In this document: one piece after another, positions 33,591 to 64,000 of the stretch
How positions within the stretch are numbered: the first letter of the stretch is position 1
Layout: every line of letters begins with the position of its first letter
Source of the DNA: an uncultured Acidimicrobiaceae bacterium
Lineage (GTDB): Bacteria; Actinomycetota; Acidimicrobiia; Acidimicrobiales; RAAP-2
Direction of reading: 5' to 3'
NCBI GenBank assembly: GCA_963833585.1
Contig: CAWHYF010000005.1
Span: 769,774 to 833,773 of the forward strand
DNA: 64,000 bases
The notes under the pieces: model-generated
Database searches by the model: none
What the model was told of the DNA's origin: nothing
What the model saw: the letters and a program-made list of their open reading frames with translations, nothing else
Program-made: the position numbers and the translations under genes

Positions 33591-33707
33591 GCCGATCTGA
33601 ACACTACGGCGTGGTCCCGCGGGGGACGGTCATCGGTGCCGCCGGTCGGCCACCCGACGCCACGTCGGGTGGCCTCGGGGCCCGCGCCGTGCTCCACCGA
33701 TCCCCGG

Positions 33708-35741
33708 CTACCCCGCTCCCGAGCCGTAGAAGCCGGCGTCGCCGAAGGTGAAGATCCCCCCGTCCCCCGCCACCAGCCAGTAGCCGAGTCCGTCCGGCGT
33801 GGAGGTCATGCCGACCACCGGCTTGACCAGGGAAAGGTTCCCGGTCGAGCCGGAGAAGGTGGCGTCGCCGAAGGTGAAGATGCCGCCGTCGGAGGCCACC
33901 AGCCAGTACCCGCGCCCGTCGGGGGTGGGGGCCATGCCCACCACCGGCCGGTTGAGGTGGATGTTGCCGGTCGAGCCGGAGAAGCCGGCGTCGCCGAAGG
34001 TGAAGATGCCGCCGTCGGAGGCCACCAGCCAGTACCCGCGCCCGTCGGGGGTGGGGGCCATGCCCACCACCGGCTGGTTCAATCTCATGCTCCCCGTCGA
34101 GCCGAAGAACCCGGCGTCGCCGAAGGTGAAGATGCCGCCGTCGGAGGCCACCAGCCAGTAGCCGGCCCCGTCGGGGGTGGCGGCCATCCCGACGATGGGC
34201 CGGTTGAGGTGCTGGGCGCCCATGGACCCGTGGAACCCGGCGTCGCCGAAGGTGAAGATGCCGCCGTCGGAGGCCACACCCCAGTAGCCCCCACCGTCGG
34301 GGGTGGGCGCCATGCCGACGATCGGCCGGTTGAGCGGCAGGCCCTCGGCCGACCCCAGGAAGGTGGCATCGCCGAAGGCGACGATCCCCCCGTTGTTGCC
34401 GGCCAGCCAGTAGCCCCGCCCGTCCGGGGATCGGGCCATGGCCACCGCCGGGCTGTCCAAGGCGGTGGCCGTGGTGAACCAGTCCGACCTCAACCCCACG
34501 CCGGCGGCAAAGGCGTCGCCGGTCAGCGAGACGTCCTGGTTGGAGCCCACCAGGGTCATGGTGGTGACCCGCCCACCGAAGTCGCCGTACCCGTTCCGCC
34601 CGGTGATGGAGATGGACCGCAGGTCGCCCAGCTGGGGCCAGGTGGCGTCGATGGTCGCCACCGGCACGGCGGTGGTCCAGTCATGATTGGGATTGCACGC
34701 CCCGGGGACGCAGACCGAGTCCCCGGCGTCGGGCACCGCCGGGAAGACCCCGGGATTGGTGTAGCCGCCCGTCGACGCCGAGTACTGGGTGGCCGCCACC
34801 ACCCCGCCGGGGAACTCCATGACCTGCCCGCCGGTGGCCGAGGTGGCCAGGTCGGTGACGGCGCTCTCGTTCAGTGTCCCCCGGTAGGTCTGACAGGCGA
34901 GGTCGCAGGTGTCGGCGTAGCCCCCGTAGGAGTTGGGGCTCGCCATCACGTACGACCGGGTGGCCACGGCCTGGGCCTCGAGCTCCTGGAAGCCCCACGC
35001 CTGCCCCTGAGGTCCGGCGGCGCCGAGCGATCCCCAACCGGCGGGCGACTCGTTGGGCACCACGCCCGCCACGTACTGCTCGAGGGGCACCTCGTTGACC
35101 GTCCGGGCCTGCTGCAGGGAGTTGTAGGTGGCCAGGATGGAACCGTGCATGGTGACGTTGGCGGCTCCTCCCAGACAGAGGGTGAGCGTCTCTGAGCCGT
35201 CGTCGGGGCTGGGGGTGGCCGTGGGGTCGGTGGTCGAGGCCACGACGTTGGTCCAGGTGCCGTCAGGATTACCCGCGCACGAAGACGACGTCCACACCGC
35301 CCACGCCGGCCCGGGTACCTGGGTCATCAGCGCGACCTGCCCCGGAGGGAAGTACACCCCGGCCACGGTGAATCCGGTGGCGGAGGCCACGATCAGGTTG
35401 TTCCCGTCGTTCTCGGTCATGGCCACGGTGACGACGTGGGCCTCCTGCGGCGCCGGCAGCGTGGCCAGGCTGGTCCCTCCGTAGTACGCCCCCAAGATCG
35501 AGGGGTAGGGCGTCTGGGCCAGCGCGGACCCCAGCGCGCCCCACTGCCCCATGCCGTGACCGTGACCGAAGCCGTGTCCCTGGATGATCACCGACGAGGA
35601 CGGGTAGGCGGCGGCCGGTGGCGTCGCCAGGCCCACCCCCACCAGCCAGGCCAGCAGGACCCCCACCGTGACCGCCCCCACCCCACGCCGGCCGCCACCG
35701 CCCCGGTGCCGCTTCGTGACTGGATCCGGATTCACCTGCAC
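33708..35741 (-). CDS. SpoIID/LytB-domain protein fused to six 42-aa repeats (beta-propeller-like)
   Basis: N-terminal signal/TM segment and a SpoIID signature (GHGFGHGHGMGQWGA...ATRSYV...CQTYRG). The C-terminal 246 aa are six repeats of the form VGMAPTPDGxGYWLVASDGGIFTFGDAGFxGS. Confidence 0.8.
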   Translation of the reverse strand: MQVNPDPVTKRHRGGGGRRGVGAVTVGVLLAWLVGVGLATPPAAAYPSSSVIIQGHGFGHGHGMGQWGALGSALAQTPYPSILGAYYGGTSLATLPAPQEAHVVTVAMTENDGNNLIVASATGFTVAGVYFPPGQVALMTQVPGPAWAVWTSSSCAGNPDGTWTNVVASTTDPTATPSPDDGSETLTLCLGGAANVTMHGSILATYNSLQQARTVNEVPLEQYVAGVVPNESPAGWGSLGAAGPQGQAWGFQELEAQAVATRSYVMASPNSYGGYADTCDLACQTYRGTLNESAVTDLATSATGGQVMEFPGGVVAATQYSASTGGYTNPGVFPAVPDAGDSVCVPGACNPNHDWTTAVPVATIDATWPQLGDLRSISITGRNGYGDFGGRVTTMTLVGSNQDVSLTGDAFAAGVGLRSDWFTTATALDSPAVAMARSPDGRGYWLAGNNGGIVAFGDATFLGSAEGLPLNRPIVGMAPTPDGGGYWGVASDGGIFTFGDAGFHGSMGAQHLNRPIVGMAATPDGAGYWLVASDGGIFTFGDAGFFGSTGSMRLNQPVVGMAPTPDGRGYWLVASDGGIFTFGDAGFSGSTGNIHLNRPVVGMAPTPDGRGYWLVASDGGIFTFGDATFSGSTGNLSLVKPVVGMTSTPDGLGYWLVAGDGGIFTFGDAGFYGSGAG
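33711..34448. repeat. Six tandem 126-bp coding repeats (last one 108 bp)
   Basis: The protein-level 42-aa periodicity is visible in the DNA, and repeats 4 and 5 are nearly identical. The shadow ORF 33799..34161 shows the same periodicity. Confidence 0.85.
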
Positions 35742-35816
35742 CTCGGGAGGCAGAGTACCGCCACCGTCCCACGCTGGCGCGGACCAGCGCTTGGACGGAT
35801 CTCCGGGCCGGCGGTG

Positions 35817-36932
35817 CTAGACGGAGCTGACCCCCTGGACGGTGCAGGCCGCGTCGAGGGCGGCGGCAAAACGCTCCCTGACCCGCGGCAGGGCGAAGGA
35901 CTCCACCCGTTCGGCGGCCGCCCCGGCCAAGACGCTCCGCAGGTTCTGGTCGTGAACCACCCGGTCGATGGCCGCGGCCACCCGGGCCGGGCCCTTGTCC
36001 GGCAGCACCAGGCCGGCCCCCTGGACGGTCTCGGGTACGGCCGTGTTGGCGTAGGCCACGATCGGCAGACGGTGGTACATCGACTCCAACAGGGGAACGC
36101 AGAACCCCTCGTGGTTGGAGAGGCAGCAGAACGCGTCGGCGGCGGCGTAGTAGGCGATGAGCTGTTCGTGGGTGACCACGCCGGCCATCTCCACCGCATC
36201 GGTGAGTCCGAGCTCCTCGATGAACCGATCGAGGGCCACCGAGTACTCCTCGCTGATCGATCCCCCCACCACCTGGAGCCGGGCCTCCGGGTCGTAGAGC
36301 CGACGGTAGGTGGCCAGGGCCTTGATCAGATCGTCCTGGCCCTTGTGAGGGGAGACCTTGCCCACGAACAGCAGATCGGCTCCGCCGTGCGACTTCTGGG
36401 CGGCCAGCCGCGCCTCCACGGCCGGGTCCGGTGCGCCCGCAAAGCTGTCGAGGTCGATGAGCAGGGGGATGGTCGTGGTCGACCGGTAGCCGGCCGAACG
36501 GAGCTCCCCCTCGTTGAACCGTGAGTCGGCGACGGCGAACTCGGTCACCGGGGCCAGGTCCCGCAGCTGGGCCCGTCCCCACCGAACCTCCTCCCCGACC
36601 TCGGGCATCCATGCCTCGATGAGGTCGGCCGGAGTGATGTTGTGGTAGTTCACGAACTTCCGCTCGGGTCGCTCACGGAAGACATCGGCCACGCCGCTGC
36701 CGATGGACAGCTGGTACAGGAGGACCCGTCCGTTGGCCGGATGGTCGCTCAGCCTGCCGACGGGATACCCGAACTCCAGTCGGTCCGATGAGGCATTGCC
36801 GTAGTAGATGTCGGACCGGTACCCGCGCGACCGGAGTAGGTCACGGAGCTGCACGGTGTGCCCGCCGATGGCGTCACGGCTGGCCAGCGTGGGAATGACC
36901 TGGTCGATCCGGTCGACGCCGCCGTCCGTCAC
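35817..36932 (-). CDS. Glycosyltransferase family 4 (GT-B fold)
   Basis: LLFVGKVSPHKGQDDL and SNHEGFCVPLLESM (E-x7-E region). The GTG at 36932 lies 8 nt after the wzt stop; the track start at 36986 would overlap wzt by 47 nt. Confidence 0.8.
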   Translation of the reverse strand: MTDGGVDRIDQVIPTLASRDAIGGHTVQLRDLLRSRGYRSDIYYGNASSDRLEFGYPVGRLSDHPANGRVLLYQLSIGSGVADVFRERPERKFVNYHNITPADLIEAWMPEVGEEVRWGRAQLRDLAPVTEFAVADSRFNEGELRSAGYRSTTTIPLLIDLDSFAGAPDPAVEARLAAQKSHGGADLLFVGKVSPHKGQDDLIKALATYRRLYDPEARLQVVGGSISEEYSVALDRFIEELGLTDAVEMAGVVTHEQLIAYYAAADAFCCLSNHEGFCVPLLESMYHRLPIVAYANTAVPETVQGAGLVLPDKGPARVAAAIDRVVHDQNLRSVLAGAAAERVESFALPRVRERFAAALDAACTVQGVSSV

Positions 36933-36939
36933 CGGTCGA

Positions 36940-38208
36940 TCACGAGGCGGACTCCTCCCACCCGGCGAGTGGTGCGAACTGGGCACCGCTCACGGTGGGG
37001 ACCTCGCCGGTGTGCCCGCTGGACCGGAGCCGGAAGCTCACGTCCAGCGGCAGGCGCACCCGACCGGTGGAGCGGCCGTTGTTGGCCACCTCGAACTGGG
37101 TCACCTGGTCCTTCCAGTCGTACACCGCGGTGTCGGTGGCGCTGCGGACGCCGACGCTCACCGAGTAGGTCCCGTCCAACAGGGGCACTTCGGGGAAGAA
37201 GAACCGGACCACTCCCCCACCCTCGGGAACGTCCAGGGCGCAGAGCGGATCATCGGGGTCGGAGGCGAAGACCAGCTCGTTGGCGTCGTCATGGATGGCA
37301 ATGGTGGCCATGGCGTTGGGTACGGCGGCCAGACTGTCCAGATCCGCCGTCACGGTCAGCGACTCGCCCGGATACAGATGCTGGCGGGATCCGCTCCCCC
37401 CGTGCTCGGCCTGGACCGTCCCGATGGCGAAGACGTTGCCGGCGATCCCCCCGGACTCCGATCCCTCGAGCGTGCCCACCCCCAGCAGATCGGCCAGGTA
37501 CACCCGGATGCCCTCGCCGGCTTCGTCCACCGTGATGACACGGCCGTGGTTCATCACCATGACACGGGCGCAGTTCTGGCGGATGGTGTCGGTCCCGTGG
37601 CTCACCACCACGATGGTCCTTCCCTCGCGCTGGAATTTCTTCACGTGGTCCAGGCACTTCCGCTGGAAGTTGGCGTCCCCCACCGCCAGCACCTCGTCCA
37701 CCAGCAACACGTCGGGCTCGACGTTCACCGCCACGGCAAAGCCGAGCCGGACGTACATCCCGGAGGAGTAGAACTTGACCTGATTGTCGATGAACTCCTC
37801 GAGCTCGGCGAAGGCCACGATGTCGTCGAAGCGCTTCTCGATGTCCGAGTGGGACAGGCCGAGGAGTGAACCGTTGAGGAAGATGTTGTCCCGCCCCGAC
37901 AGATCCGGTTGGAAGCCGGCGCCCAGCTCCAACATGGCGGCCAGGCTCCCCCGGACCCGGATCTCCCCCGAGGTGGGCTTGAGGATGCCGGCGATGCACT
38001 TGAGCAGGGTCGACTTCCCGCACCCGTTGCGGCCGAGGATCCCGAACGTCTCCCCCTGGTTGATGTCGACGTTGACGTCGCGCAGGGCCCAGAACGGGGT
38101 GAACGGCATCTTCCCGCCATGGATGACCCGTTCCTTCAACGAGGTGTGCTTCTCGTTGTAGAGGCGGAACTGCTTGGAGATGTCCCGGACCTCGATGGCG
38201 ACGGCCAC
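36940..38208 (-). CDS. Polysaccharide/O-antigen-type ABC exporter ATP-binding protein with a C-terminal glycan-binding-type domain (Wzt/TagH-like)
   Basis: Walker A GRNGCGKST, signature YSSGMYVRL, Walker B LLVDEV, followed by a roughly 170-aa beta-rich extension. GTG start at 38208. Confidence 0.85.
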   Translation of the reverse strand: MAVAIEVRDISKQFRLYNEKHTSLKERVIHGGKMPFTPFWALRDVNVDINQGETFGILGRNGCGKSTLLKCIAGILKPTSGEIRVRGSLAAMLELGAGFQPDLSGRDNIFLNGSLLGLSHSDIEKRFDDIVAFAELEEFIDNQVKFYSSGMYVRLGFAVAVNVEPDVLLVDEVLAVGDANFQRKCLDHVKKFQREGRTIVVVSHGTDTIRQNCARVMVMNHGRVITVDEAGEGIRVYLADLLGVGTLEGSESGGIAGNVFAIGTVQAEHGGSGSRQHLYPGESLTVTADLDSLAAVPNAMATIAIHDDANELVFASDPDDPLCALDVPEGGGVVRFFFPEVPLLDGTYSVSVGVRSATDTAVYDWKDQVTQFEVANNGRSTGRVRLPLDVSFRLRSSGHTGEVPTVSGAQFAPLAGWEESAS

Positions 38209-38211
38209 GAT

Positions 38212-48436: not shown

Positions 48437-49287
48437 CTACCAGCCCCGGAACACCGGGGGGCGGCGCTCGGCGAAAGCGGCCAGACCCTCGCGGCAGTCG
48501 TCGGTGCCGGTCACCAGCTCCTGGGCCACCGCCTCGTCCCACAGGGCCGTGGCCCGGTCGGACTCCAGGGACCGGTTGGTCAGGTACTTGGTCACGCTGA
48601 TGGCCCGGGTCGGACCGGCCGCCAGCCGCGACGCCCACTCGCCGGCCAGGGTCAGCAGCTGGTCCCGGGGGACCACCCGGTTCACCAGTCCGAGTCGCTC
48701 GGCCTCGGAGGCGGACAGGTCGTCCCCGAAGAAGAACAGCTCCTTGGCCCGCTGCGGTCCGATCAGCCGGGGAAGCAGATAGGCCCCACCGGCGTCGGGG
48801 GCGATCCCGCGGCGGACGAAGACCTCGATGAACTTGGCCTCCTCCGCCGCCAGCACCAGGTCGCAGGCCAGCGCCAGGTGCATCCCGCCCCCGGCGGCGG
48901 TGGCGTTCACGGCCGCGATGACCGGCTTCTCGCAGTCCAGCACGGCCGAGACCAGACGCTGCCAGCCGGTCCGGATCAGTCGCGCCGCATCGCCGACGGC
49001 CCGGTCCGGCGCACCCTCGGGCCGCTCGGGCCCGGGGCCGGACGAACGCAGGTCGGCCCCGGTGCAGAACCCCTTCACTCCCGCCCCGGTCAGCACCACC
49101 ACCCGGACGGCCAGGTCGGCGGAGGCCTCCTCGAGCCAGGCGATGATCTGCTCCCGCATGGCGAGCGTGATGGCGTTGCCGGCCTCCGGGCGGTTCAGGG
49201 TGATCCACGCCACCCCACCCTCCACCGTGCGAGCACGGCGTCGCCGGTGGGTGCGGTCGCTCCCGGCCCTCTGTCCCCCTCGGACAT
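48437..49287 (-). CDS. Enoyl-CoA hydratase/isomerase; the N-terminal 21 codons are out of frame (1-nt deletion near 49226)
   Basis: Crotonase motifs (ITLNRPEAGNA, FCTGADL, AAGGGMHLALACD). The ATG at 49287 overlaps the upstream stop (TGATG) and encodes MSEGDRGPGATAPTGDAVLAR, which joins VEGGVAWITL... only after a frame correction. The uncorrected ORF is 48437..49225. Confidence 0.8.
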
Positions 49288-49784
49288 CAGATGCGGTGGA
49301 TGATGTTCATCCGCGAGGTGCACACCGGCGCACCGGTCGACTGCTCGCTCCAGGCCGTCTCCACCACGATGAAGGTCATGGTCTTCCCCTTGGACTCCTT
49401 CTGGTAGGCGTCGACCACGGTGCCCTCCCCCACCAGCACGTCTCCGGCCAGCACCGGTCGGTGGTAGGTGAACTCCTGTTCCCCGTGGAGGATCAGCCCG
49501 CCCTTGGCCATGAGGGGCCCGAGCAGCTCGAACATGGGATTGTCCGACGGGGCCTCGGCCGTCTGCAGCTCGGGGTAGGCCCCGAAGCTGCCCATCACGA
49601 AGGGGTAGGTGGGGGGGGCGGGGATGCCGGCCAGGCCGGCCTCGGCCGCGGCCCTCGGGTCGCGGTAGACCGGGCTGGGATCCTTCACGGCGTCGGCGAA
49701 CAGAGCCAGCTGGCCTCGCTCCACGGTGACCACGGTGGTCCCGGTGGGCTTCCCGATGATCGTGCTCAGGATGTCGTCTGCCAC
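49287..49784 (-). CDS. MaoC-dehydratase N-terminal-type hot-dog protein (non-catalytic partner type, HadA/ChsH-like)
   Basis: GTG at 49784, 7 nt after AAGGGAGG (VADDILSTIIGKPTG...). 165 aa with ...PPTYPFVMG...ILHGEQEFTYHRP.... Confidence 0.7.
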   Translation of the reverse strand: MADDILSTIIGKPTGTTVVTVERGQLALFADAVKDPSPVYRDPRAAAEAGLAGIPAPPTYPFVMGSFGAYPELQTAEAPSDNPMFELLGPLMAKGGLILHGEQEFTYHRPVLAGDVLVGEGTVVDAYQKESKGKTMTFIVVETAWSEQSTGAPVCTSRMNIIHRI

Positions 49785-49800
49785 CTGATGGTCCTCCCTT

Positions 49801-49871
49801 GTCGTCGAACGCCCTGTCGTCGAACGCCCTGTCGTCGAACGCCCTGTCGTCGAACGCCCTGTCGTCGAACG
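49801..49871. repeat. Perfect tandem repeat, 15-bp unit GTCGTCGAACGCCCT x 4.7
   Basis: Copies at 49801, 49816, 49831 and 49846 are identical, and 49861-49871 repeats the first 11 nt. It starts 16 nt upstream of the hot-dog gene start and about 200 nt upstream of the divergent NagB-like gene. Confidence 0.95.
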
Positions 49872-50070
49872 GCTGTCTCGGCCGTCGGCGGCCGGCGCGG
49901 CCTCCGACGGATGGGGCCCCAGGGTGCCCGTTGCGCACCGTAGCGCGCCACTCCTGCCACCAGGAAGTTCCGCCGGTCCGCTCGGACCGGTCGGTGGTGC
50001 TCGATGACGCGCTCCCCCACCGACCGTCGAGTTCGGGCCGCCCGCCACCCGTGCCCCTACAGTGCATCGC

Positions 50071-51183
50071 ATGAACTCCGCCGAGGTGGTGGTCCTCCCG
50101 AGCTCCGAGGCCATGGCCCGGTCCGCGGCCGACGAGGCGACGGCGATCCTGCAGGATGCCGTGGACCGCCACGGTGTGGCGCACGCCATGTTCGCCACCG
50201 GCAACTCCCAGCTGGCCTTCGTCGAAGCCCTGTTCGCCCCCGAGCGCCACGTGCCCTGGTCGGAGACGGTGGTGTTCCACATGGACGAGTACGTGGGGGT
50301 GGGACCGGACCATCCGGCCGGATTCCGCCACTGGATCCACGACCGGATCGAGGCCCGGGCCCACCCGAGGGCAACCCACTACCTCGACGGGCTGGCTCCC
50401 CCGGACGAGGAGTGCCGGCGGTACGCCGGACTGCTGCGCGACCACCCCCTCGACCTGTGCTGCCTCGGCATCGGCGAGAACGGCCACCTGGCCTTCAACG
50501 ACCCGCCGGTGGCCGACTTCGAGGACCCGCTCGACGTGAAGGTGGTCACCCTGGACGACGGGTGCCGTCGTCAGCAGGTCAACGAGGGCCACTTCCCCAC
50601 GGTGGGGGAGGTTCCGGCCGAGGCGATGACGGTGACCATCCCGGCCCTGCTCCGGGCCGGGCGGGTGCTGGCCATGGTCCCCGAGGCCCGCAAGGCCGAG
50701 CCGGTCCGTGCGGCCCTGGAGGGCCCGATCGGCACGGCGTGCCCGGCCTCGATCCTCCAACGCACCCCCCACGCCAAGGTCTTCCTGGACCCGGCGTCGG
50801 CCGGGCTCCTCGAGCGCGACGAGCGCGGTAGCGGGCGGGCGGTCCCGCCGCCTACTGCGCGTGGAGGCCCAGCCACCGGTCGAGGAACGGATAGGCCAGC
50901 TCGCCGTGCCACTGGTGCTCGCCGTCGAAGGCGTCGTGGACCAGGCGTTCGCCGGCACCACTGCGCTCGTAGAGCGGCCGCACCTTGGCCAGCGAGGCCT
51001 CGGCCGCGGCCACCGGGAAGAGCAGGTCGTCCCGGCCGTTCTCCACCAGCAGTGGCCGCGGCGCGACGAGCGCCCCGAGATCGGCGTGCTCCATCCGGCC
51101 CAGCATGCCGAACAGCACCTGCGAGCCGCACATGTTCCAGGGCACCTTGTGCGCCTCCGACCAGGAGGAGAAGTAGCCGCTGA
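50071..51183 (+). CDS. Glucosamine-6-phosphate deaminase / 6-phosphogluconolactonase (NagB/SugarP-isomerase) family protein; 3' end doubtful
   Basis: MFATGNSQ, HMDEYVGV and GIGENGHLAFNDP motifs. The recognisable domain ends near 50830 (...LDPASAGLLERDER). The frame then stays open for 110 Arg/Pro-rich codons and overlaps the convergent hydrolase gene by 332 nt. Confidence 0.7.
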   Translation: MNSAEVVVLPSSEAMARSAADEATAILQDAVDRHGVAHAMFATGNSQLAFVEALFAPERHVPWSETVVFHMDEYVGVGPDHPAGFRHWIHDRIEARAHPRATHYLDGLAPPDEECRRYAGLLRDHPLDLCCLGIGENGHLAFNDPPVADFEDPLDVKVVTLDDGCRRQQVNEGHFPTVGEVPAEAMTVTIPALLRAGRVLAMVPEARKAEPVRAALEGPIGTACPASILQRTPHAKVFLDPASAGLLERDERGSGRAVPPPTARGGPATGRGTDRPARRATGARRRRRRGPGVRRHHCARRAAAPWPARPRPRPPGRAGRPGRSPPAVAAARRAPRDRRAPSGPACRTAPASRTCSRAPCAPPTRRRSSR

Positions 51184-52063: not shown

Positions 52064-52933
52064 GTGGGGCACACTGGACCGATGGCGGTCGCCACCCAAC
52101 TCGACATCCGGCCCATCTCGCCGATCATCGGCGCCGAGATCCACGGCATCGACCTGTCCCGTCCGCTCGGCTCTCCGGTGGTGGCCGAGGTCAGGCAGGC
52201 GCTCAACACCCACCATGTGGTGTTCTTCCGGGATCAGTCGCTCTCCCCCACCCAACAGGCCGACTTCGCCCGCCAGTTCGGCGAGGTGACCGAGGGCCAC
52301 CCGGTCATCCCGGCCATCGAGGGGAACCCGGAGGTGCTGGCCATCGACGGCCGCGAGGACCGGGCCAGCTGGTGGCACACCGACGTCACCTTCCTCCAGG
52401 CCCCGGCGTTCGGCTCCATCCTCTGCATGCTGGAGTGTCCCGAGGTGGGAGGCGACACCACCTGGGCCAGTCTGCAGGACGCCTACGACCGGCTCTCGGA
52501 GCCGGTACGAACCCTGTGTGACTCCCTGATCGCCATCCACTTCGACCCGTGGTTCGCCGCCGACGTCCAGACCCGGGGCGGCTACGAGTGGGAGGGCCGG
52601 CACTACGAGAAGCTGCTCCCCGCCCTCCACCCGGTGGTGCGCACCCACCCGGAGAACGGGCGCAACGGCCTCTTCGTCAACCCCCAGTTCACCCAGTCCA
52701 TCCTGGGCCTGTCCAAGCACGAGAGCGACGGGATCCTCGACGTGCTCTACCGGCACTGCCAACAGCCCGAGCTGACCTGCCGGTTCCGGTGGCAGCCGGG
52801 CTCGGTGGCCTTCTGGGACAACCGGGCCACCCTGCACTACGCGCTGGACGACTACGGCGACGCCAACCGGGTCGCCCACCGGGTCACCCTGCGGGGGGAC
52901 GTCCCCTACGGCCCGGCCATGCCCCGCCGCTGA
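52064..52933 (+). CDS. TauD/TfdA-family Fe(II)/2-oxoglutarate dioxygenase
   Basis: WHTDVTF (HxD), ...HPVVRTHPENG..., ...WDNRATLHYA.... The start is the GTG at 52064 or the ATG at 52082. Confidence 0.85.
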   Translation: MGHTGPMAVATQLDIRPISPIIGAEIHGIDLSRPLGSPVVAEVRQALNTHHVVFFRDQSLSPTQQADFARQFGEVTEGHPVIPAIEGNPEVLAIDGREDRASWWHTDVTFLQAPAFGSILCMLECPEVGGDTTWASLQDAYDRLSEPVRTLCDSLIAIHFDPWFAADVQTRGGYEWEGRHYEKLLPALHPVVRTHPENGRNGLFVNPQFTQSILGLSKHESDGILDVLYRHCQQPELTCRFRWQPGSVAFWDNRATLHYALDDYGDANRVAHRVTLRGDVPYGPAMPRR

Positions 52934-55878: not shown

Positions 55879-58083
55879 CTAGCCCAGTCCGTCCACGGCC
55901 GCCCCCAGGAACACCGGGCGCAGCAGATCGCTCCGCTCCAGGAGGTCGGCGGTGGGCCCGTCGAAGCGGACCTCGCCGCGCTCGAGGAAGAAGGCCCGCT
56001 CGGCCAGGCTCATGGCCCGGTTGACGCTCTGCTCCACCAGCACCACCGTGGTGCCCTGGCGGTTGACCTCCCGCACGATGGCCATCAGCCGGTCCACCGC
56101 CATGGGGGCCAGCCCCAGAGCCAGCTCGTCGATCATCAGGAGCTTCGGCTCGGTCATCATGACCCGGGCCAGGGCCAGCATCTGCTGCTCGCCGCCCGAG
56201 AGGGTGCCGGCCGGCTGGTGGAGGCGCGGGGCCAGCTCGGGGAAGCGGTCGACCGCCTCGTCCAGGGCGGCCCGGGACCGGGACCCCTGGCCCCGCAGGG
56301 AGTGGCTCCCGACCAAGAGGTTGTCCCGCACGGTCAGGCCGGTGAAGGTCATCTTGCCTCCGACCAGCAGGGCCACGTCCCGGCGGATGATCTGCTCGGG
56401 CTCGAGGTAGGTGCAGTTGGTTCCGTAGATGCGGATTACGCCACGGTGGGGGTGGTCGAGCCCGGCCACCGCCCGTAGCAGGGTGGACTTGCCGGCGCCG
56501 TTGGTGCCGAGCAGGGCGACGATCTCGCCCTGGCCCACTTCGAGGTTGACGTCGAACAACACCTGGTTGGTGCCGTAGTAGAAGTCGAGATTGTGGACCT
56601 GCAGGGCCGGGAGGTCGCCCCCGGCCTGCCGGCGGGCGCCCTCGGCGTGGCGTTCCAGCACGTCCTCGATGACCAGGGTGATGTCGCGCCGGACGTAGCG
56701 GGAGCCGACGAGCAACATGAACCCCCCGATGACGCAGACCGGACCGATCAGGGTGAGAGCCGCCGTGGGCCCGTTCCGGTAGCCGACGGCGTCGCTCACC
56801 GCCCCGAGGAGGACGCCACCGGCGAACCCTCCGAAGACCAGGGAGTACACCCCGAACATGGCGAAGCAGATGGTGCGCATCTCCGCCGGCGCGGTGGCAG
56901 CCAGGGTCAGGAAGATGCAGATGGCCAGCGGCGAGATCGCTGCGTTGGCCAGGAACTGCAGGGTCACCACCATCCACAGCTCGGGCAGGTACAGCGAGGC
57001 CACGTACAGGCCCCCGTAGGCGGCGATGCAGATCCCGGCGATGACCAGGGGACGTTGGGGGGCGCGGCGGAAGTACCGGTCGCCGAGGACATAGGCCAGG
57101 GGCAGGCCGAGGAAGGCGGCCAGTCCGATGACGGAGTAGACCTCGCTCCTCTGGGCGGTGTCCAGTCCCCACACCCGCACGAAGTACAGGTTCCCGAACA
57201 GCGGTGCCGCCGTCCCGGCGAAGCCCAGGATGGCCACGGCCACCAGCTCGTAGTAGATGGAGCGGATCCGCAGCAGGCGGGTGATGGCCGAACCCAGCAG
57301 GACCCGGGGGGCATCGCTCTGCTGGGAGTGCAGGTCCATGCCGGAGGCCTTCAGGATGTGACTGGACTCGTTCTGGCCCTTGTCCGGCTCGTTCAGGGTG
57401 AACAGTGACAGCCCGAGGGGGATCCCCACCAGGGCGATGAGCATCCCCCACCGCCAGTTGTGTCCGACGGTGACCACCAGCCCGAAGATCAGGATCCCCA
57501 CCGTCTGGGACAGCGGATCGGAGAGGTTGTGCCAACTGAACACCCGCCCCCGACCCTCGGTGGGATAGGCATCGGAGAGATACGAGTTGTGGACGGTGTT
57601 GTTCACCCCGGACCCGATCGAGGCGATCAGGTAGAGGAAGGTGAAGACCCACACGTTGGGGGACAGGGCCATCAGCGGGGTGAACACGGAGAAGATGATC
57701 AGCGCCACCCCGGCCACCACCTTGCGGCTCCCCCGGTCGGCCCACAGGGCCAGAGGCACCGCCCACAACAGCTGGGCGGCCGATCCGACGAAGGTCACCG
57801 CGCCGAGGGCGGCGTCGTGGATGTGGAAGGAGGCCTCGAGGTTGGTGCCGATGTTGGCGATGCCGTTTCCGACCGTGCCCGGCACCAACGCGGCCAGCGT
57901 GAGCAGCACCAGGGGGGAGTAACCGAACTGGTTGAGGATGCCGACCAGGGGCGGCGGCTTGCCTTCGCCGGTGCCGGGCATGGAGGCCAGGTCGGCGACG
58001 GCGTCGGGGTTGCTGCTCTTGGCGACGACCTCTTTGAGGAGTTCGTCGGGTACGGCGAAGTCGAACACCACCTGGTCGGCCAT
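55879..58083 (-). CDS. MFS-like 12-TM domain fused to a LivF-like ABC ATP-binding domain
   Basis: 734 aa. The N-terminal roughly 480 aa are hydrophobic with an MFS motif-A-like LWADRGSRK. The C-terminal roughly 240 aa have Walker A GTNGAGKST, signature LSGGEQQ and Walker B LLMIDE. Confidence 0.8.
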   Translation of the reverse strand: MADQVVFDFAVPDELLKEVVAKSSNPDAVADLASMPGTGEGKPPPLVGILNQFGYSPLVLLTLAALVPGTVGNGIANIGTNLEASFHIHDAALGAVTFVGSAAQLLWAVPLALWADRGSRKVVAGVALIIFSVFTPLMALSPNVWVFTFLYLIASIGSGVNNTVHNSYLSDAYPTEGRGRVFSWHNLSDPLSQTVGILIFGLVVTVGHNWRWGMLIALVGIPLGLSLFTLNEPDKGQNESSHILKASGMDLHSQQSDAPRVLLGSAITRLLRIRSIYYELVAVAILGFAGTAAPLFGNLYFVRVWGLDTAQRSEVYSVIGLAAFLGLPLAYVLGDRYFRRAPQRPLVIAGICIAAYGGLYVASLYLPELWMVVTLQFLANAAISPLAICIFLTLAATAPAEMRTICFAMFGVYSLVFGGFAGGVLLGAVSDAVGYRNGPTAALTLIGPVCVIGGFMLLVGSRYVRRDITLVIEDVLERHAEGARRQAGGDLPALQVHNLDFYYGTNQVLFDVNLEVGQGEIVALLGTNGAGKSTLLRAVAGLDHPHRGVIRIYGTNCTYLEPEQIIRRDVALLVGGKMTFTGLTVRDNLLVGSHSLRGQGSRSRAALDEAVDRFPELAPRLHQPAGTLSGGEQQMLALARVMMTEPKLLMIDELALGLAPMAVDRLMAIVREVNRQGTTVVLVEQSVNRAMSLAERAFFLERGEVRFDGPTADLLERSDLLRPVFLGAAVDGLG

Positions 58084-58160: not shown

Positions 58161-59441
58161 TCAGGCCCCCTCCGGCGTGGGGCCTCGGGGCGTGGCCACG
58201 GTGAGTGGCCCCCGGGGCAGCACGCAGAGCCGGGCCGGCCGGCCCTCGAGCCGGGACCGGGCCGCCAACGCCTCGGCCACGGCGGCGGACGGGTCGGTCA
58301 CCGGCAGCATCCGGGCCGCCCGGACCCACTCGTCGGTGAGGCCCTGCGAGTACATCCACACCTGGGCCCGGCCGAGGACCCGGCCGAGCACCTGGGACTG
58401 CCACCCGTCCACCTCCCCGGGCCCGACCGGCCGGGCCAGCTGCTCGACGGAGGGGGCGGCCCGGAGGATCCGGGCGAAGGCCCCGTCCTCGGGGACGCCG
58501 TCGCCACACGCCGCCGCCATCACGATGATCCCGCCCTCGGTCACCACCCGTTCCGCCGCGGCCAGGCCCTTGACCGCCTGGTACAGGTTGCGGTCGAGCG
58601 GATGGCCGCCGTTGGTGGTGAGCACGACGTCGAACCGGCCGGGCACCGACCGGGTGACCGAGCGGGACGCCGCCGCCACGGCGGCCCGGTGGCTGTCCGG
58701 CAGGGTGCCGACGAACACCCCGGTGAGCCGGCGCTGGTCGTCGATGGTGACGTCGACGACCAGATCCGGCGGGCACCGCGAGGTGGCGGCGCTCACGAAG
58801 TCGTGCACGGGATTTCCCCGGGTGGCCAGCCAGGTGGAACCGGGGTCGGCGATCCGCCCCGGACTGTGGGCCTCGATGACGGTGGAGGTGGCGGCCAGCC
58901 CGGGACAGGTCCCTTTCGGACCTCCGCTCCAGCCGGCGAAGAAGTGGGGCTCGACGAACCCGGTCAGGATCCGGCGGTCGGCCTCCACGTACCGTCGGTC
59001 GAGGAGGATGGGGACCCCGTCGACGGCACCGACGGCGACGTGGTCCGGGTCGTCCGACCGGTGCTGGTGGATCCGGTACCGCTCGACGATGGCCGACCCG
59101 ACCAACTCGGCCAGTTCGGCCGGGGTGGCCGAGCGGTGGGTGCCGGTGGCGCACAACAGGTCGACCCGGTCCGGTCCCGCCCCGGCCCGCTCCAGCTCGG
59201 CCAGCAGCGGAGGCAGCACGGTGGTGTTGGGCATCGGCCGGGTGATGTCGGGGAAGACCACCACCACCCGATCGCCCGGTGCCACCAGATCGGCGAGCGG
59301 CCGCCCGCACAGCGGCGACCGGAGCGCCTGCTCCACCGCACCCCACTCGTCGGCCAGCGGCGTTGAGCCGGTGGGCTCGACCACGACGGCCTCGGGCGGC
59401 ACCTCCACGGTCAGACCGTCGGTGCCGTAGGCCACGGTCAC
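58161..59441 (-). CDS. LarA-like nickel-pincer-nucleotide-dependent 2-hydroxyacid racemase/epimerase (DUF2088 family)
   Basis: The GTG at 59441 overlaps the kinase stop (GTGA). 426 aa with CATGTHR and FVEPHFFAGWSGGPKG...EAH, giving H-x9-K-x15-H spacing. Confidence 0.75.
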   Translation of the reverse strand: MTVAYGTDGLTVEVPPEAVVVEPTGSTPLADEWGAVEQALRSPLCGRPLADLVAPGDRVVVVFPDITRPMPNTTVLPPLLAELERAGAGPDRVDLLCATGTHRSATPAELAELVGSAIVERYRIHQHRSDDPDHVAVGAVDGVPILLDRRYVEADRRILTGFVEPHFFAGWSGGPKGTCPGLAATSTVIEAHSPGRIADPGSTWLATRGNPVHDFVSAATSRCPPDLVVDVTIDDQRRLTGVFVGTLPDSHRAAVAAASRSVTRSVPGRFDVVLTTNGGHPLDRNLYQAVKGLAAAERVVTEGGIIVMAAACGDGVPEDGAFARILRAAPSVEQLARPVGPGEVDGWQSQVLGRVLGRAQVWMYSQGLTDEWVRAARMLPVTDPSAAVAEALAARSRLEGRPARLCVLPRGPLTVATPRGPTPEGA

Positions 59442-60913
59442 CCGCACGCCCGGACCTCCGGACCGCTGGGCCGGCCCAGCGGGAGCAGGGCGGCGACGGC
59501 CCGGTCCGACCGCGGCCGTAGGGAGCGATAGGCCGGGACGACCTCGGGGTCCGGCCGGTGCCGGCGCACCACGGGGTCCAGCCGGTCGAGGTCGGTCTCG
59601 ATCCCGACCGCCCGGGCGGCCAGCAGGGCGGCCCCCGCCGAGGCCGCCTGCCCCGAGCGGCGGGAGTGGGCCGGCAGCCCGGTGACCCCGCAGAGCACCT
59701 CGGTCCACACCTCGACCTCGGCCCCGGAGCCCCCGAGGGCCAGCCCGGTCGGCACCGGGCCCGAGGGCCGGCGATCGGACGCCACCTCCAGGCAGCGCTG
59801 CACCTCCCAGGCCACCGCCTCGTACGCCGCCCGGGCCAGGTCACCGGGGCCGTGCCCGGCGTGCAGTCCCACGAAGCCGACGGTGGCCTCGTCCCGCCAC
59901 CACGGGGCCCGGGCCCCCTCCAGCCAGGGGACGGCCACCACCCCTCCTGCGCCCGGCGGGCTCACCGCGGCCCACTCGGCCAACGTCTCGGCCGGTTGAC
60001 CGACCAGGCGCCCGATCCACGCCACCAGGGATCCGGCCGCCGACAGACCACCCTCCAGCAGCCACCCCCCGTCGGCCGCCCGGGACAGCACCACGCCGGC
60101 CGGCGCCCGAGCCGGCCGGTGACCGAGCGGGACCGAGACGTTGGCCGTCGTGCCCCAACTGACCATGGGACGGTCCTCGGCCGCCCCGGAGCCGAGCACC
60201 TCACAGGCGCGGTCGCCGGCCCCGATCACCACCGGCAGGCCGCCGGCCAGCCCCAGTGCCGCCGCCGCCGGCCGGGTGAGGGGTCCGGTGACGCGGTCCG
60301 GCGGCACCTGGGGCGGGAGCAGGACGGCCGCCTCGCCGGCCAGGGCCGGATCCAACCGGCCGTCGAGGTCGTAGAGGCCGCTGCGCGAGGCCATGGTGGG
60401 GTCGGTGGCCACCACGCCGGTGAGGCGGTGGGTCACCAGGTCCCTCGGGGTGAGTACCCAAGAGGCGGCGGCCAGGAGGTCGGGGTGGTTCGACCGCAGC
60501 CACCCGAGCTTGGCGGCAACCGATGCTGCGTCGAGGGGGATCCCGCTCGGGGCCGGGGCCCCTCCCCCACCCTCAGTCTTCTCGGCCAACCGGCGGGCCT
60601 CGCCCCCCGCCCGGCGGTCCGACCAGCCGATGGCCGGCCCCAGAGGGCGGCCGTCGGCGTCCACCAGTACCAACGTCTGGCGGGCGCCCGTGCAGCCCAC
60701 CACGTCCACCGCGGCATACGCCTCCGGCGCCCGGTCCCTCACCTCCGAGCAGGCCGAGACCACCGTGGCCCACCACTCGGTGGCGTCCTGCTCGGACCGG
60801 CCCGGTCGTGGATGGGTGGTCCCGACCGGCCGCCCGGCGTGGGCCACCCGGCCGTCCGGGCCCCACACGGCCACCTTGGTGACGCTCGAGCCGAGGTCGA
60901 CGGTGAGGATCAC
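59438..60913 (-). CDS. FGGY-family carbohydrate kinase
   Basis: N-terminal ILTVDLGSSVTKVAVW (actin-fold phosphate-1), ...WSDRRA..., and a C-terminal FGGY_C pattern (GGSGAEVEVWTEVL). GTGA overlap with the aldolase stop. Confidence 0.8.
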   Translation of the reverse strand: MILTVDLGSSVTKVAVWGPDGRVAHAGRPVGTTHPRPGRSEQDATEWWATVVSACSEVRDRAPEAYAAVDVVGCTGARQTLVLVDADGRPLGPAIGWSDRRAGGEARRLAEKTEGGGGAPAPSGIPLDAASVAAKLGWLRSNHPDLLAAASWVLTPRDLVTHRLTGVVATDPTMASRSGLYDLDGRLDPALAGEAAVLLPPQVPPDRVTGPLTRPAAAALGLAGGLPVVIGAGDRACEVLGSGAAEDRPMVSWGTTANVSVPLGHRPARAPAGVVLSRAADGGWLLEGGLSAAGSLVAWIGRLVGQPAETLAEWAAVSPPGAGGVVAVPWLEGARAPWWRDEATVGFVGLHAGHGPGDLARAAYEAVAWEVQRCLEVASDRRPSGPVPTGLALGGSGAEVEVWTEVLCGVTGLPAHSRRSGQAASAGAALLAARAVGIETDLDRLDPVVRRHRPDPEVVPAYRSLRPRSDRAVAALLPLGRPSGPEVRACG

Positions 60914-61743
60914 CCGGCGTGCACGACGTCCGCCAGGCGCTTTGCGGCCAGACCGGGGGACGACTCCTCGAGGATGGCCCGGCCCATGGCCAGCCCGGCC
61001 CCGCCCCCGGCCATCACATCCCGGGCCTCCCGCAGGACGCCGTCGGCGCCGTCGGATCGGTGCGGACCCCCGAGGAAGAGGACCGGTACCCCGACGCTGG
61101 CCGCCACCCGTCCCACCGCCTCGACCCGGGGATCACCCGGCGGCCGCTCCGGGACCGGGACCTTGAGCAGGGGCGCCCCGAGGTCGTGGGCGATGACCGA
61201 GGCCAGGACCACGTCGTCGGTCTGCTTGGACATGGTCCCGTGGCGCCAGATCACCGGCTCGATCATGGCCTCGAGCCCCGACGCCCGGGCCTCCTCCAGG
61301 ACCTGGCCCAGCAGGGCCAGTCCGGCGGCGCCGCCCGGGTCGGCGTAGTCGATGCGGGTCATGAGCTTGATCCCGGTCCAACCGTCGGCGGCGGCCCGGG
61401 CCACGCTGGCCACCAGCCGGTCGTCGAGTTCGAAGGCCGAGCCGGCCAGCCCGGTCCGGTTGATCGACAGATAGGTGCGGTGACCGGGTCGGAGCGAGCC
61501 GTTGCGGGCCAGGTCACCGAGCGGCTGCGCCGTCGCCAGGATGCCGTCGCAGTGGGCCAGGGCCTCGCCGGCCGCTCCGAGGTAGTCGGCGTAGGACTCG
61601 ATGGTCATCACGCCGCGCGCCCGGTGGTCGGCCGCCAGGACCAGGGCGGGGGTCGGGAGGAGAGGGGCGGCGGTCCGGTGGTGGTCGCCCGCGGCCCCCG
61701 TCGGTCCCTGGCCGCCCGTCCCGGTGCCACCCACCCCGTTCAC
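60910..61743 (-). CDS. Class I aldolase, DeoC/LacD (TIM-barrel) family
   Basis: The GTG at 61743 overlaps the upstream stop (GTGA). ...ALVLAADHRA..., WTGIKLMTRI (candidate Schiff-base Lys) and GGAGLAMGRAI. Confidence 0.65.
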   Translation of the reverse strand: MNGVGGTGTGGQGPTGAAGDHHRTAAPLLPTPALVLAADHRARGVMTIESYADYLGAAGEALAHCDGILATAQPLGDLARNGSLRPGHRTYLSINRTGLAGSAFELDDRLVASVARAAADGWTGIKLMTRIDYADPGGAAGLALLGQVLEEARASGLEAMIEPVIWRHGTMSKQTDDVVLASVIAHDLGAPLLKVPVPERPPGDPRVEAVGRVAASVGVPVLFLGGPHRSDGADGVLREARDVMAGGGAGLAMGRAILEESSPGLAAKRLADVVHAG

Positions 61744-62627
61744 TCCAGTCCGGCCCGGGCGAAGACCACCTTGGCCACCGCCGAGAAGTCCTGGCGGCCG
61801 TACCCGGCCGCACTGGCCGCGCCGAGTGCCTCCCGGGCCACCTCGGTGGTGGCCAGGGACACGCCGGCCGACGAGGCGTAGTGCAAGGCCAGGTCGAGGT
61901 CCTTGGCCATGAGATCGGTCATGAAACCGGGCTTCCACCCGTTGGAGGCCGGGCTCTCCGGGATGACCCCGGCGACCGGCAGCCGGGTCCGCACGGCCAC
62001 GCAGTCCCCCGTGGAGTGGAGGAGCACCTGGTGCAACTTGTCCATGTCCACCCCGGATCTCACCGCCAGGGCTGACGCCTCGGCCGTGGCCACCATCTGA
62101 GCCGCGTAGATCAGGTTGTTGCACAACTTCACCACCTGGCCCATCCCCGCTCCGCCGACGTGGACGATCAAGCCGGCGAAGGGGTCGAGGGCCGGGCGCA
62201 CCGCTTCCAGGGTCGCCTCGTCCCCCCCGACCATGAGGGTCAGCGTGCCCTTCTCCGCCCCGGCCGTGCCGCCCGAGAGAGGGGCGTCGAGGAACGCCGC
62301 GCCGGTGGCGGCCACCCGTTCGTGCTGGGCCCGCTCCACCTCGGGGTCGATGGTCGAGCAGTCCACCACCACCTTCCCCGGTCCCAGGGCGGGCAGCATG
62401 GCGTCCACCACGTCGACCACCTGGGGCGAACTCGGGACACAGAGGATCACCACCTCGCTGACCTCGGTCACCCGGAGCGGATCGGTCCCGTCGACGGCCC
62501 CCAGGGACACCGCCTGGGCCACCGGCCCGGGGCTCCGCGAGGACACGGTGACCCGGTGGCCGGCCTCCACCAGGTGCCGGGCCATGGGCAGGCCCATCGC
62601 CCCCAGTCCGACGAAGCCGATCTGCAT
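61740..62627 (-). CDS. NAD(P)-dependent beta-hydroxyacid dehydrogenase (HIBADH / tartronate-semialdehyde-reductase family)
   Basis: ATG at 62627 after GAGGAGG. IGFVGLGAMGLPMA Rossmann motif, DAPLSGG, and GAGMGQVVKLCNN with the catalytic Lys. Confidence 0.85.
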   Translation of the reverse strand: MQIGFVGLGAMGLPMARHLVEAGHRVTVSSRSPGPVAQAVSLGAVDGTDPLRVTEVSEVVILCVPSSPQVVDVVDAMLPALGPGKVVVDCSTIDPEVERAQHERVAATGAAFLDAPLSGGTAGAEKGTLTLMVGGDEATLEAVRPALDPFAGLIVHVGGAGMGQVVKLCNNLIYAAQMVATAEASALAVRSGVDMDKLHQVLLHSTGDCVAVRTRLPVAGVIPESPASNGWKPGFMTDLMAKDLDLALHYASSAGVSLATTEVAREALGAASAAGYGRQDFSAVAKVVFARAGLE

Positions 62628-62712
62628 GGGGTCCCTCCTCATCGATGTCCGAACCCGTCGAGGGTCCCTCGCCGGCAGGCCCCGGGGCAACTGCCCCGGT
62701 CGGTCGGTCGGT

Positions 62713-64000
62713 TCAGGTGGTGAACTGGGGGAGCCACGCCGCCGTGGCCGCCAGGAGCTCCCCCACCATGGACTCGGTCCGATGGAGGTCGCCCCGACCG
62801 GCCAGGGGGTCGAGGAAGAAGGCCGCTTCGGCCAAGGCACGGTCGCCCTCCACGGCGGCGGCCACCGTCAGCTCGGCGACCGCCACGTGACGACGAACCA
62901 GCTCGTCGTAGGGCGCCGGCAGCGGGGCCACGTCCCGACCCCGGATACCGTCGCCGTCGACCACACAGATCGATTCGACCACCGACGGTTCGGGCACGTC
63001 GGGGACCTGGCCGGCGTTGGGGATGTTGGCCGGGAGCTCGCGCCGCTCACCGGTCACCAGCGAGTCGATCACCAGGGCCGGGAGCTCGCCCGAGAACCAG
63101 GTCTGGAGCTCCTTGGTGCCTGCTAGCCAGGCGTCGACGTCGGCGACGTAACCCGCCTGGTGCTCCTGACGGGTGCCGATGGAGGTCAGCTCGAGGTTGA
63201 AGTCGGCCCCCCAGTGCGAGGCCTCGGTCAGTACCCACGGCAGGAACTCGGCGATGTGGCGGTCCCCGGCGGCGGGGAGGGCACCCCACTTGTCCAGCAG
63301 CGTGAGTTTGAGGGCGTGACGTTGGACGAAGTCGAGGCGCGAGAAGGTCTCGGCCTCGGGGCGGCCGGGGTGGGGGCCCAGGGCGGCCAGGCCTCCGGCC
63401 TCGTCCACCATCTCGGCCAGGATGGTGAATCCGTCCCTCCCGTCCACGTCCAGGGCGGTGACCACCGGGAAGTGGTTCACCCCGGCCACGGTGGGCCGGA
63501 CCGCCTCGGCCGGGAGACCGAGCGCGATGGCCAGATCCATGGACCAGTTCCCGACCTCGTGGCACAGGCCGACGGCCCGCACCGAGGTCTGCCGGCAGAC
63601 GGCGCGGGTCAGGCAGGACATCGGGTTGGTGATGTTGAGCAGCCAGGCGTCGGGGCAGACCTTCCCCATGTCCTCGGCCACCCCCACCAGAACCGGGATG
63701 TTGCGCAGGGACCGGCTGATGCCCCCCGGGCCCACGGTGTCCCCCACCGACTGGCGGATGCCGTACCGGGCCGGAATCTCGAGATCGAACCCCATGGAGT
63801 CGAACCCGCCGGTGGAGATGGTGACGATCACGAAGTCCGCGCCGTCCAGGGCCTGGCGTTGGTCGGTGGTGGTCGACACGGTGGCGGCGGCCCCCATCGA
63901 CTCGTTGAGCAGCGCGGCCAGCGACGCCATCTTGTCCAGCGGGGCGGGGTCGATGTCCTCGAGGACGTAGTGGGCGCCCCGGAGCGACTCGGTGCCCAGC
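62713..64000 (-). CDS. Glycoside hydrolase family 4 (NAD+/Mn2+-dependent glycosidase), 5' end outside the window
   Basis: NITNPMS...VGLCHE signature of GH4. The frame stays open to the window edge. Confidence 0.8.
   Translation of the reverse strand, partial: LGTESLRGAHYVLEDIDPAPLDKMASLAALLNESMGAAATVSTTTDQRQALDGADFVIVTISTGGFDSMGFDLEIPARYGIRQSVGDTVGPGGISRSLRNIPVLVGVAEDMGKVCPDAWLLNITNPMSCLTRAVCRQTSVRAVGLCHEVGNWSMDLAIALGLPAEAVRPTVAGVNHFPVVTALDVDGRDGFTILAEMVDEAGGLAALGPHPGRPEAETFSRLDFVQRHALKLTLLDKWGALPAAGDRHIAEFLPWVLTEASHWGADFNLELTSIGTRQEHQAGYVADVDAWLAGTKELQTWFSGELPALVIDSLVTGERRELPANIPNAGQVPDVPEPSVVESICVVDGDGIRGRDVAPLPAPYDELVRRHVAVAELTVAAAVEGDRALAEAAFFLDPLAGRGDLHRTESMVGELLAATAAWLPQFTT

Follow-up and report, generated by a model that had tools for sequence, protein, structure and literature searches.

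Among the closest described systems to the transporter considered here are members of two families. The first is the HAAT family of ATP-binding cassette (ABC) importers (TC 3.A.1.4), to which the Escherichia coli LivJ/K-LivHMGF system and the urea system UrtABCDE belong, and whose "Liv-type" binding proteins bind many compounds beyond branched-chain amino acids (PMC3223731). The second is the Spinster family (TC 2.A.1.49) within the major facilitator superfamily (MFS), represented by HnSpns and by human SPNS1 and SPNS2. Here we describe a gene in which the two are joined. It lies in a stretch of 64,000 nucleotides from an uncultured Acidimicrobiaceae bacterium (GenBank assembly GCA_963833585.1, contig CAWHYF010000005.1), referred to below as the window, and it encodes a Spinster-like MFS domain followed by a LivF-type ATPase domain in one polypeptide, MFS-LivF. 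The genes next to it encode a fused LivH-LivM permease (LivHM) and a LivG-type ATPase. In the 2021 Chemical Reviews article on the superfamily, the fusion partners listed for MFS proteins are all enzymatic, regulatory or signalling domains (PMC8154325). Our full-text literature searches found no description of an MFS-ABC ATPase fusion or of its function, in agreement with the original prediction, a note made from the DNA sequence alone, which knew of none.

Several likenesses tie the system to the HAAT importers. The ATPase domain of MFS-LivF shares 40% identity with E. coli LivF, and the two have the SGGEQQ and VEQ motifs in common; its LivG-type partner carries a BCA_ABC_TP_C tail and has a signature motif that is degenerate; the permease consists of BPD_transp_2 halves; and a Peripla_BP_6 binding protein is found in relatives. 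What sets the system apart is the MFS domain of 12 transmembrane (TM) helices carried on LivF, the joining of LivH to LivM in the window system, and a gene neighbourhood that points away from branched-chain amino acids. The MFS domain, for its part, resembles the Spinster proteins in its 12-TM fold, its motif A, a GWRW motif before TM6 and an R-x-x-x-x-D motif after TM12, but differs from them in being fused to an ABC ATPase.

The open reading frame (ORF) of MFS-LivF was originally described as single and intact, with an MFS-type N-terminal domain and a LivF-like C-terminal domain, and each of these points is borne out. The frame is open throughout its 734 codons, and its third-position guanine-plus-cytosine fraction of 0.94 is like that of the neighbouring genes. 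Pfam matches MFS_1 to residues 81-421 (E 2.3e-28; 99.6 bits against a curated cutoff of 33.4) and ABC_tran to residues 510-653 (E 1.4e-27). We modeled the protein with AlphaFold2 from 110 homologues and obtained a mean predicted local distance difference test (pLDDT) score of 85.3 and a predicted template-modeling (pTM) score of 0.81. Twelve TM helices and a central cytoplasmic loop are seen in the model, whose ATPase domain begins at residue 494; TM12 is an unbroken helix (residues 446-486) that runs on into the cytoplasm. A topology of the MFS domain with both termini inside is consistent with a hydropathy scan and the positive-inside rule. The N-terminal extension of 45 residues is 65% conserved in the close subfamily and has low pLDDT in the model, and the linker between the domains, at an entropy of 0.52 bits, is among the best-conserved segments in that subfamily. 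When the full-length model was compared with solved structures, only ATPase-domain matches were found, with a query-normalised template-modeling score of at most 0.30; the best structural match for the ATPase domain is 1JI0.

The C-terminal domain has the signature motif LSGGEQQ, the Walker B motif LLMIDE, and VEQS where the H-loop would be. UrtE and LivF are its top NCBIfam models, but it scores far below the equivalog cutoff of both (172 versus 441 bits for LivF, and 181 versus 286 bits for UrtE). Given these scores, we classify the domain by sequence as a LivF relative rather than an equivalog, from which a substrate cannot be transferred. The best NCBIfam models for the partner ATPase gene are LivG and UrtD. 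Its signature motif, LSTGTRR, was originally singled out as non-canonical. The motif is indeed divergent, but it is no anomaly: it is identical in five diverse MFS-associated systems, and in an alignment with four relatives E. coli LivG carries LAYGDQRR at this place, so that the divergence is a trait of the LivG family. The degenerate signature of the LivG-type ATPase, together with the glutamine that replaces the H-loop histidine in the LivF-type domain, is the normal asymmetry of a Liv-type pair.

A fusion of this kind could arise artefactually if a missed stop codon or a frameshift joined two genes, an outcome that the original prediction had named as one that would undo it. A homologue search over 5.8 billion proteins gave 704 matches, of which we examined the best 120 clusters. 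These share 75-100% identity with the window protein and come from JGI, ENA, NCBI and Logan assemblies; both domains are present in every one of them, and almost all have a length of exactly 734 amino acids. When the MFS domain by itself was the query against 1.84 billion cluster representatives, relatives of 25-33% identity came up which are likewise 700-750 amino acids long and carry ABC_tran, and among relatives of 25-45% identity the fusion persists in Acidimicrobiia, Dactylosporangium and Yinghuangia. The constancy of length and domain content in independent assemblies, the conserved linker, and the occurrence of the same fusion in the cultured Dactylosporangium and Yinghuangia genomes make an artefact vanishingly improbable. 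Nothing at this locus speaks for one, although some database relatives are themselves faulty. Two such predictions, P0255 and P0127 (953 amino acids), look like a binding protein joined to an MFS domain and LarA joined to an MFS domain, respectively, and were considered as new architectures; both were rejected as frameshift-riddled chimeras of neighbouring genes, which show gene adjacency and nothing more. One of them holds a poly-lysine run, and predictions of this sort could mislead surveys of domain architecture.

A profile built from distant members recovered 232 proteins at E<=1e-20, which fall into two architectures. The first is MFS-LivF, of about 700-760 amino acids. The second, with about 40 clusters, is a triple fusion, MFS-LivF-LivG, of about 960-1035 amino acids. 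In the model of a triple fusion (pLDDT 84.4, pTM 0.69) the helix from TM12 to the ATPase is again continuous (residues 401-441), and a disordered linker of 60 residues precedes LivG. Furthermore, LivH, LivM and LivG form a single chain of 920-1016 amino acids in loci L001, L004 and L057, and also in L005, and in lineages of the L002, L001, L004 and L057 types the entire transporter consists of two polypeptides. (Two ORFs of 41-42 amino acids that follow LivHM-LivG in L001 and L005 were dropped from consideration, being unrelated to each other.) The named carriers all belong to the Actinomycetota. They comprise Acidimicrobiia, Acidimicrobiales and Ilumatobacter metagenome-assembled genomes, Dactylosporangium sp. 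CA-092794 (Micromonosporales) and Yinghuangia aomiensis (Streptomycetaceae). NCBI labels the fused proteins "MFS transporter" or "ATP-binding protein", each name covering half of the protein.

In the window, the three transporter genes are tightly packed: the start of LivHM lies 9 nucleotides past the MFS-LivF stop codon, and the stop codon of LivHM and the start codon of the LivG-type gene overlap. The permease, originally described as a fused LivH-LivM, is just that: Pfam finds two BPD_transp_2 halves, which NCBIfam models as UrtB/LivH-like and LivM/UrtC-like, and no relative of it in the PDB is detectable by sequence. In each operon of the family MFS-LivF is the sole LivF. The ORF supplies the one LivF-type ATPase subunit of the importer, which is of the Liv type (HAAT family) and, to judge by its relatives, depends on a binding protein. 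Since the MFS module is covalently attached to the only LivF of the importer, it is an obligatory and stoichiometric member of the importer complex, and it very probably comes in addition to the binding protein and not in its place. Natural fusions in different lineages join MFS to LivF, LivH to LivM, LivM to LivG and LivF to LivG, which suggests, by the usual logic of gene fusions, that the five modules work in one complex. In a further genome (L055), the operon of the MFS-LivF type adjoins a canonical Liv operon, in which a binding protein and a fused permease are accompanied by LivG and LivF as separate genes that appear to be duplicated. Because both stand side by side in that genome, the canonical Liv and MFS-LivF systems coexist and are not interchangeable variants.

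The original prediction had further noted the lack of a solute-binding protein and had offered, as one possibility, that the MFS domain is the substrate-capture module standing in for it. For the window itself the observation is correct: neither tblastn with 12 binding proteins (best E 0.09) nor a profile search found a Liv-type binding protein in its 64 kb, and this is what speaks for a replacement. As a feature of the system, however, the lack does not hold. With the GH4 protein of the window as a probe, we collected 46 syntenic loci from species-representative genomes of uncultured Acidimicrobiaceae and Acidimicrobiales, and mapped their gene order by tblastn. The conserved order runs from a binding protein through a GH13 amylase-family enzyme, ThuA (on the opposite strand), a 361-amino-acid protein and GH4 to the HIBADH-like dehydrogenase, aldolase, FGGY kinase, LarA-like, MFS-LivF, LivHM and LivG genes, with a convergent TauD gene at the end. 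A Peripla_BP_6 binding protein and MFS-LivF occur on the same strand in 39 of the 46 loci; of the seven exceptions, five are cut by contig ends. In these 39 loci the binding-protein gene heads the cluster and ends 2.7-9.2 kb before GH4. On its far side lie genes of an unrelated ABC-2 exporter, and no other Liv permease is nearby, so that the binding protein has no other Liv permease to serve.

The same association is seen further afield, where seven of eight more distant contexts have a Peripla_BP_6 binding-protein gene beside MFS-LivF or at most 3.5 kb from it. The gene is directly beside the transporter genes in Dactylosporangium, Yinghuangia, L054, L055 and L057, and within 3.5 kb in L005 and L006. 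In L056 it was only the 47% identity shared with the L055 binding protein that revealed the adjacent protein of 544 amino acids as one. Beside the triple fusion of L002, a neighbour of 563 amino acids without a Pfam match shows weak similarity to a binding protein of the family (E 0.002) and is a possible, very divergent binding protein. The binding proteins of the family are long (about 420-565 amino acids, compared with about 370 for E. coli LivJ and LivK), and some have no Pfam match. Given that binding-protein genes accompany the transporter in its relatives, the system is best taken as an ordinary binding-protein-dependent importer to which an MFS module has been added, and a replacement of the binding protein by that module is very unlikely. 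In the source organism, the binding-protein gene would be expected just past position 64000, and its absence from the window is best read as an effect of the window's edge.

The question that remains is what the MFS module does. Its family profile, compared with the PDB, matches HnSpns (6E8J) with an E value of 3e-42, SPNS1 with 5e-32 and SPNS2 with 1e-26, and the window sequence alone reaches only 5e-7. Since the sugar-acid symporter DgoT is matched by the profile nearly as well (1.5e-28), the assignment to the Spinster clade appears loose. The motif A proposed originally, LWADRGSRK, lies between TM2 and TM3 and is repeated as LGDRYFRR between TM8 and TM9. The motif-A arginines of the two halves, R120 and R403, are invariant in an alignment of 110 homologous sequences, in which R117 is at least 90% conserved and the gating-loop residues D171, R211, R312 and D467 are invariant as well; D335/R336 is the majority pair in both subfamilies. 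Within the close subfamily, the MFS halves have 68-76% identity, as against 78% for the ATPase domain, and the cavity-lining helices TM2, 4, 7, 8, 10 and 11 are less variable than the peripheral helices TM3, 6 and 9.

HnSpns residues D41, R42 and R122 are functionally important. Distant fused members and triple fusions keep the equivalent charges, namely a TM1 D-E-x-D-R motif (DELDR), whose D-R pair aligns with D41 and R42, and a TM4 arginine that aligns with R122. The window subfamily instead has neutral residues at these places (P/G/V within PGTVG in TM1, and Y151 in TM4). It has gained ten conserved polar residues, N73, Q104, N161, N162, N166, D189, Q193, E279, E314 and Q376, which lie in TM1, 2, 4, 5, 7, 8 and 10 at positions that are hydrophobic in the distant members. 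The gene neighbourhoods differ likewise: TetR regulators, acyl-CoA ligases, thiolases, hydratases, P450s and MMPL genes surround the distant members, and GH4, GH13, FGGY-kinase, aldolase and LarA genes surround the window clade. The in-membrane polar residues thus appear to vary along with the metabolic neighbourhood, a link drawn from fewer than ten neighbourhoods.

The nearest unfused relatives of the MFS domain (P0229/P0387, P0410 and their kin in Streptomyces, Saccharothrix and Actinomadura) share 41-44% identity with fused proteins of the Ilumatobacter type. They are 450-506 amino acids long, lack the ATPase, and have the same loop motifs as the fused proteins. Because they stand alone in amidase, hydantoinase and aminotransferase operons without ABC genes, they look like ordinary uptake permeases of catabolic operons. 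With an MFS domain conserved about as well as the ATPase, with invariant motif-A arginines, and with unfused kin that seem to be ordinary permeases, the pattern of conservation fits a working transporter module and would not be expected of a passive anchor.

This bears directly on the idea that the MFS fold is a passive anchor or assembly scaffold, which keeps LivF at the membrane or lends stability to the complex but handles no ligand. LivHM already supplies a translocation path, and the TM1 D-R pair and TM4 arginine are absent from the window subfamily, both as such a scaffold would allow. Against it stand not only the conservation just described, with most central helices more conserved than the peripheral ones, but also the conserved polar residues that are specific to the subfamily. 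Moreover, canonical LivF needs no anchor, and one of 12 TM helices would be costly. We therefore hold a purely structural role to be unlikely.

A second alternative is a regulatory role. The MFS domain could be a membrane "transceptor" that binds substrate without moving useful amounts of it and gates the ATPase cycle of LivF, for example by shutting off ATP use when substrate is plentiful. A rigid, conserved helix ties the domain to the ATPase (pTM 0.81, with the linker among the best-conserved segments), and the loss of the Spinster-type charges in the window subfamily, together with the conserved polar TM residues that it does have, would suit a domain that binds and does not transport. The ATPases MalK, MetN and ModC offer a conceptual analogue from general knowledge: an extra domain on the importer ATPase modulates its cycle and causes trans-inhibition. 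Those regulatory domains, however, have unrelated folds and are small, soluble and C-terminal, unlike the N-terminal 12-TM module seen here. The distant members retain the full set of Spinster functional residues, and the nearest unfused relatives are ordinary-looking permeases. On balance, a sensor has some, though a rather small, likelihood.

The continuous helix from TM12 to the ATPase resembles the direct connection between TM and nucleotide-binding domains of ABC exporters, and this brings in the possibility that closure of the LivF/LivG dimer powers alternating access of the MFS domain, beside or instead of LivHM. It is general knowledge that ArsB, a secondary carrier, becomes ATP-driven on binding the ArsA ATPase, so that ArsAB is a conceptual analogue in which a membrane protein of the secondary type is physically joined to an ATPase; its folds are unrelated to those here, however, and no separate ABC permease accompanies ArsB. 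In the present system there is one ATPase domain per MFS domain, and LivHM, with both permease halves, would be expected to occupy the coupling grooves of the ATPases, as is generally known for ABC importers. The full-length model has no solved likeness by the structural comparison given above, and the cytoplasmic face of the MFS domain showed no motif peculiar to the fused proteins. (Such a motif had been considered as a docking site for the ATPase, and was rejected when the unfused relatives proved to share the motifs.) We consider an ATP-driven MFS domain decidedly improbable. Somewhat less remote, though still doubtful, is a hybrid machine in which the cycle of the LivF/LivG dimer would be passed on through the rigid TM12 helix and would drive or gate two different translocation folds at the same time. 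Import through LivHM that depends on the binding protein might, for example, be coupled to counter-transport by the MFS domain, or uptake by the latter might be gated by ATP.

The reading that we favour, tentatively and at a little under an even chance, is that the MFS domain provides an obligatory, working second substrate route within a binding-protein-dependent importer, tethered so that the two routes influence each other. By its pattern of conservation, the domain would still be a substrate-handling transporter module rather than a passive anchor. The second route would most likely serve the same or a chemically related solute, and it might take up solute driven by a gradient, alongside the high-affinity route powered by ATP, or it might release a product. 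Through the rigid tether, the state of one module could influence the other. A number of points weigh against this reading. The neutral residues that replace the Spinster charges mean that the MFS domain of the window subfamily could be a degenerate, non-cycling fold, and TM1 and TM5 are exceptions to the low variability of the cavity helices. No cytoplasmic motif distinguishes the fused proteins from their unfused relatives, the same motifs being present in both, and the sole pointer to a defined interface between the MFS and ATPase domains is the pTM value, which suggests one. The small number of neighbourhoods behind the link between polar residues and metabolism counts on this side too. 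Finally, canonical Liv systems work without such a module, so that in principle a second path is not needed.

As for the substrate, in the source organism it is probably carbohydrate-like or a hydroxy acid, and not a branched-chain amino acid. The LarA-like gene lies directly upstream of MFS-LivF, 77 nucleotides from its start codon, a position that is kept in relatives; no terminator-like site was found in the gap between the two, and a scan for promoters and terminators gave nothing above chance. The catabolic cluster to which it belongs (58161-64000 in the window; 4389-9801 in L018) keeps its order in about 45 Acidimicrobiales species, and in relatives it runs on to a protein of 361-386 amino acids without a Pfam match, ThuA, GH13 and the binding protein. 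The substrate of this cluster looks carbohydrate-like or hydroxy-acid-like. At the other end of the transporter operon, a gene for a dioxygenase of the TauD/TfdA family (52064-52933, plus strand) converges on it. That gene keeps its place in many relatives, and a TauD gene also occurs close to the transporter of the more distant locus L054. The coordinates of the features are collected in Table 1.

Two further observations concern other parts of the window. A perfect 15-bp tandem repeat, TGTCGTCGAACGCCC, occupies positions 49800-49871 in 4.8 copies with 100% matches, either immediately upstream of an ORF for a FAS1/MaoC-like dehydratase (49287-50282, minus strand) or within that ORF's N-terminal part, where it would encode TTGRS pentapeptide repeats. 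A run of cell-envelope genes at 30852-38211 (minus strand) encodes a 925-amino-acid protein with a lysyl-phosphatidylglycerol-synthase TM region, a 702-amino-acid SpoIID-domain protein, a group-1 glycosyltransferase, and a Wzt-type ABC ATPase with a Wzt_C domain.

Table 1. Features of the MFS-LivF transporter locus and of related loci. Positions refer to the window unless a locus is named.
Feature	Position	Strand	Evidence or remarks
LivG-type ATPase, 304 amino acids	52961..53875	-	ABC_tran and BCA_ABC_TP_C
Fused LivH-LivM permease, 665 amino acids	53872..55869	-	BPD_transp_2 twice, E 4.7e-58
MFS-LivF fusion gene, 734 amino acids	55879..58083, including stop codon	-	Intact ORF; Pfam MFS_1 and ABC_tran
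LivF-type nucleotide-binding domain, residues 494-734	55879..56604	-	ABC_tran, NCBIfam, alignment with E. coli LivF
Walker A motif GTNGAGKST of LivF-type domain	56482-56508	-	
Linker, residues 471-493	56605..56673	-	Cytoplasmic prolongation of TM12 helix plus short connector
Spinster-like MFS domain, residues 46-470, 12 TM helices	56674..57948	-	MFS_1, family profile, AlphaFold2
Motif A LWADRGSRK of MFS domain	57721-57747	-	
N-terminal cytoplasmic extension, residues 1-45	57949..58083	-	Motifs FDFAVPDELL, MPGTGEGKPP
LarA-like gene (2-hydroxyacid racemase/epimerase family)	58161..59450	-	Lar_N and LarA_C; start approximate
FGGY kinase	59438-60913	-	Pfam
Cgl0159/DeoC-like aldolase	60910-61701	-	Pfam
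HIBADH-like dehydrogenase	61740-62630	-	Pfam
GH4 glycosidase	62713 to past window end	-	Pfam
Binding protein of the family	L018 4389-6086		
Binding protein of the family	L055 8311-9984		
Binding protein of the family	L056 8355-9989		
Binding protein of the family (candidate)	L002 5905-7596		
Triple fusion MFS-LivF-LivG (example)	L002 10001-13009		
LivH-LivM-LivG single chain	L001 12210-15026		
LivH-LivM-LivG single chain	L004 5714-8572		
LivH-LivM-LivG single chain	L057 12202-14970		
Canonical Liv operon	L055 15185-22179	-	Adjoins MFS-LivF-type operon

ABC and MFS transporters, primary and secondary respectively, are assigned to different mechanistic classes, and here the two are joined in one complex, in a union that is kept across two classes of Actinomycetota and in several fusion arrangements. 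What is new is a HAAT importer that carries an integral MFS module, a protein visible in the databases but named there by halves; its recognition would correct the annotations "MFS transporter" and "ATP-binding protein", and would aid the assignment of a substrate to a common, unstudied uptake system of soil Acidimicrobiia. The reason for the union could reveal a new coupling or cross-regulation of two transport routes, and the cultured carriers Dactylosporangium sp. CA-092794 and Yinghuangia aomiensis make that question testable.

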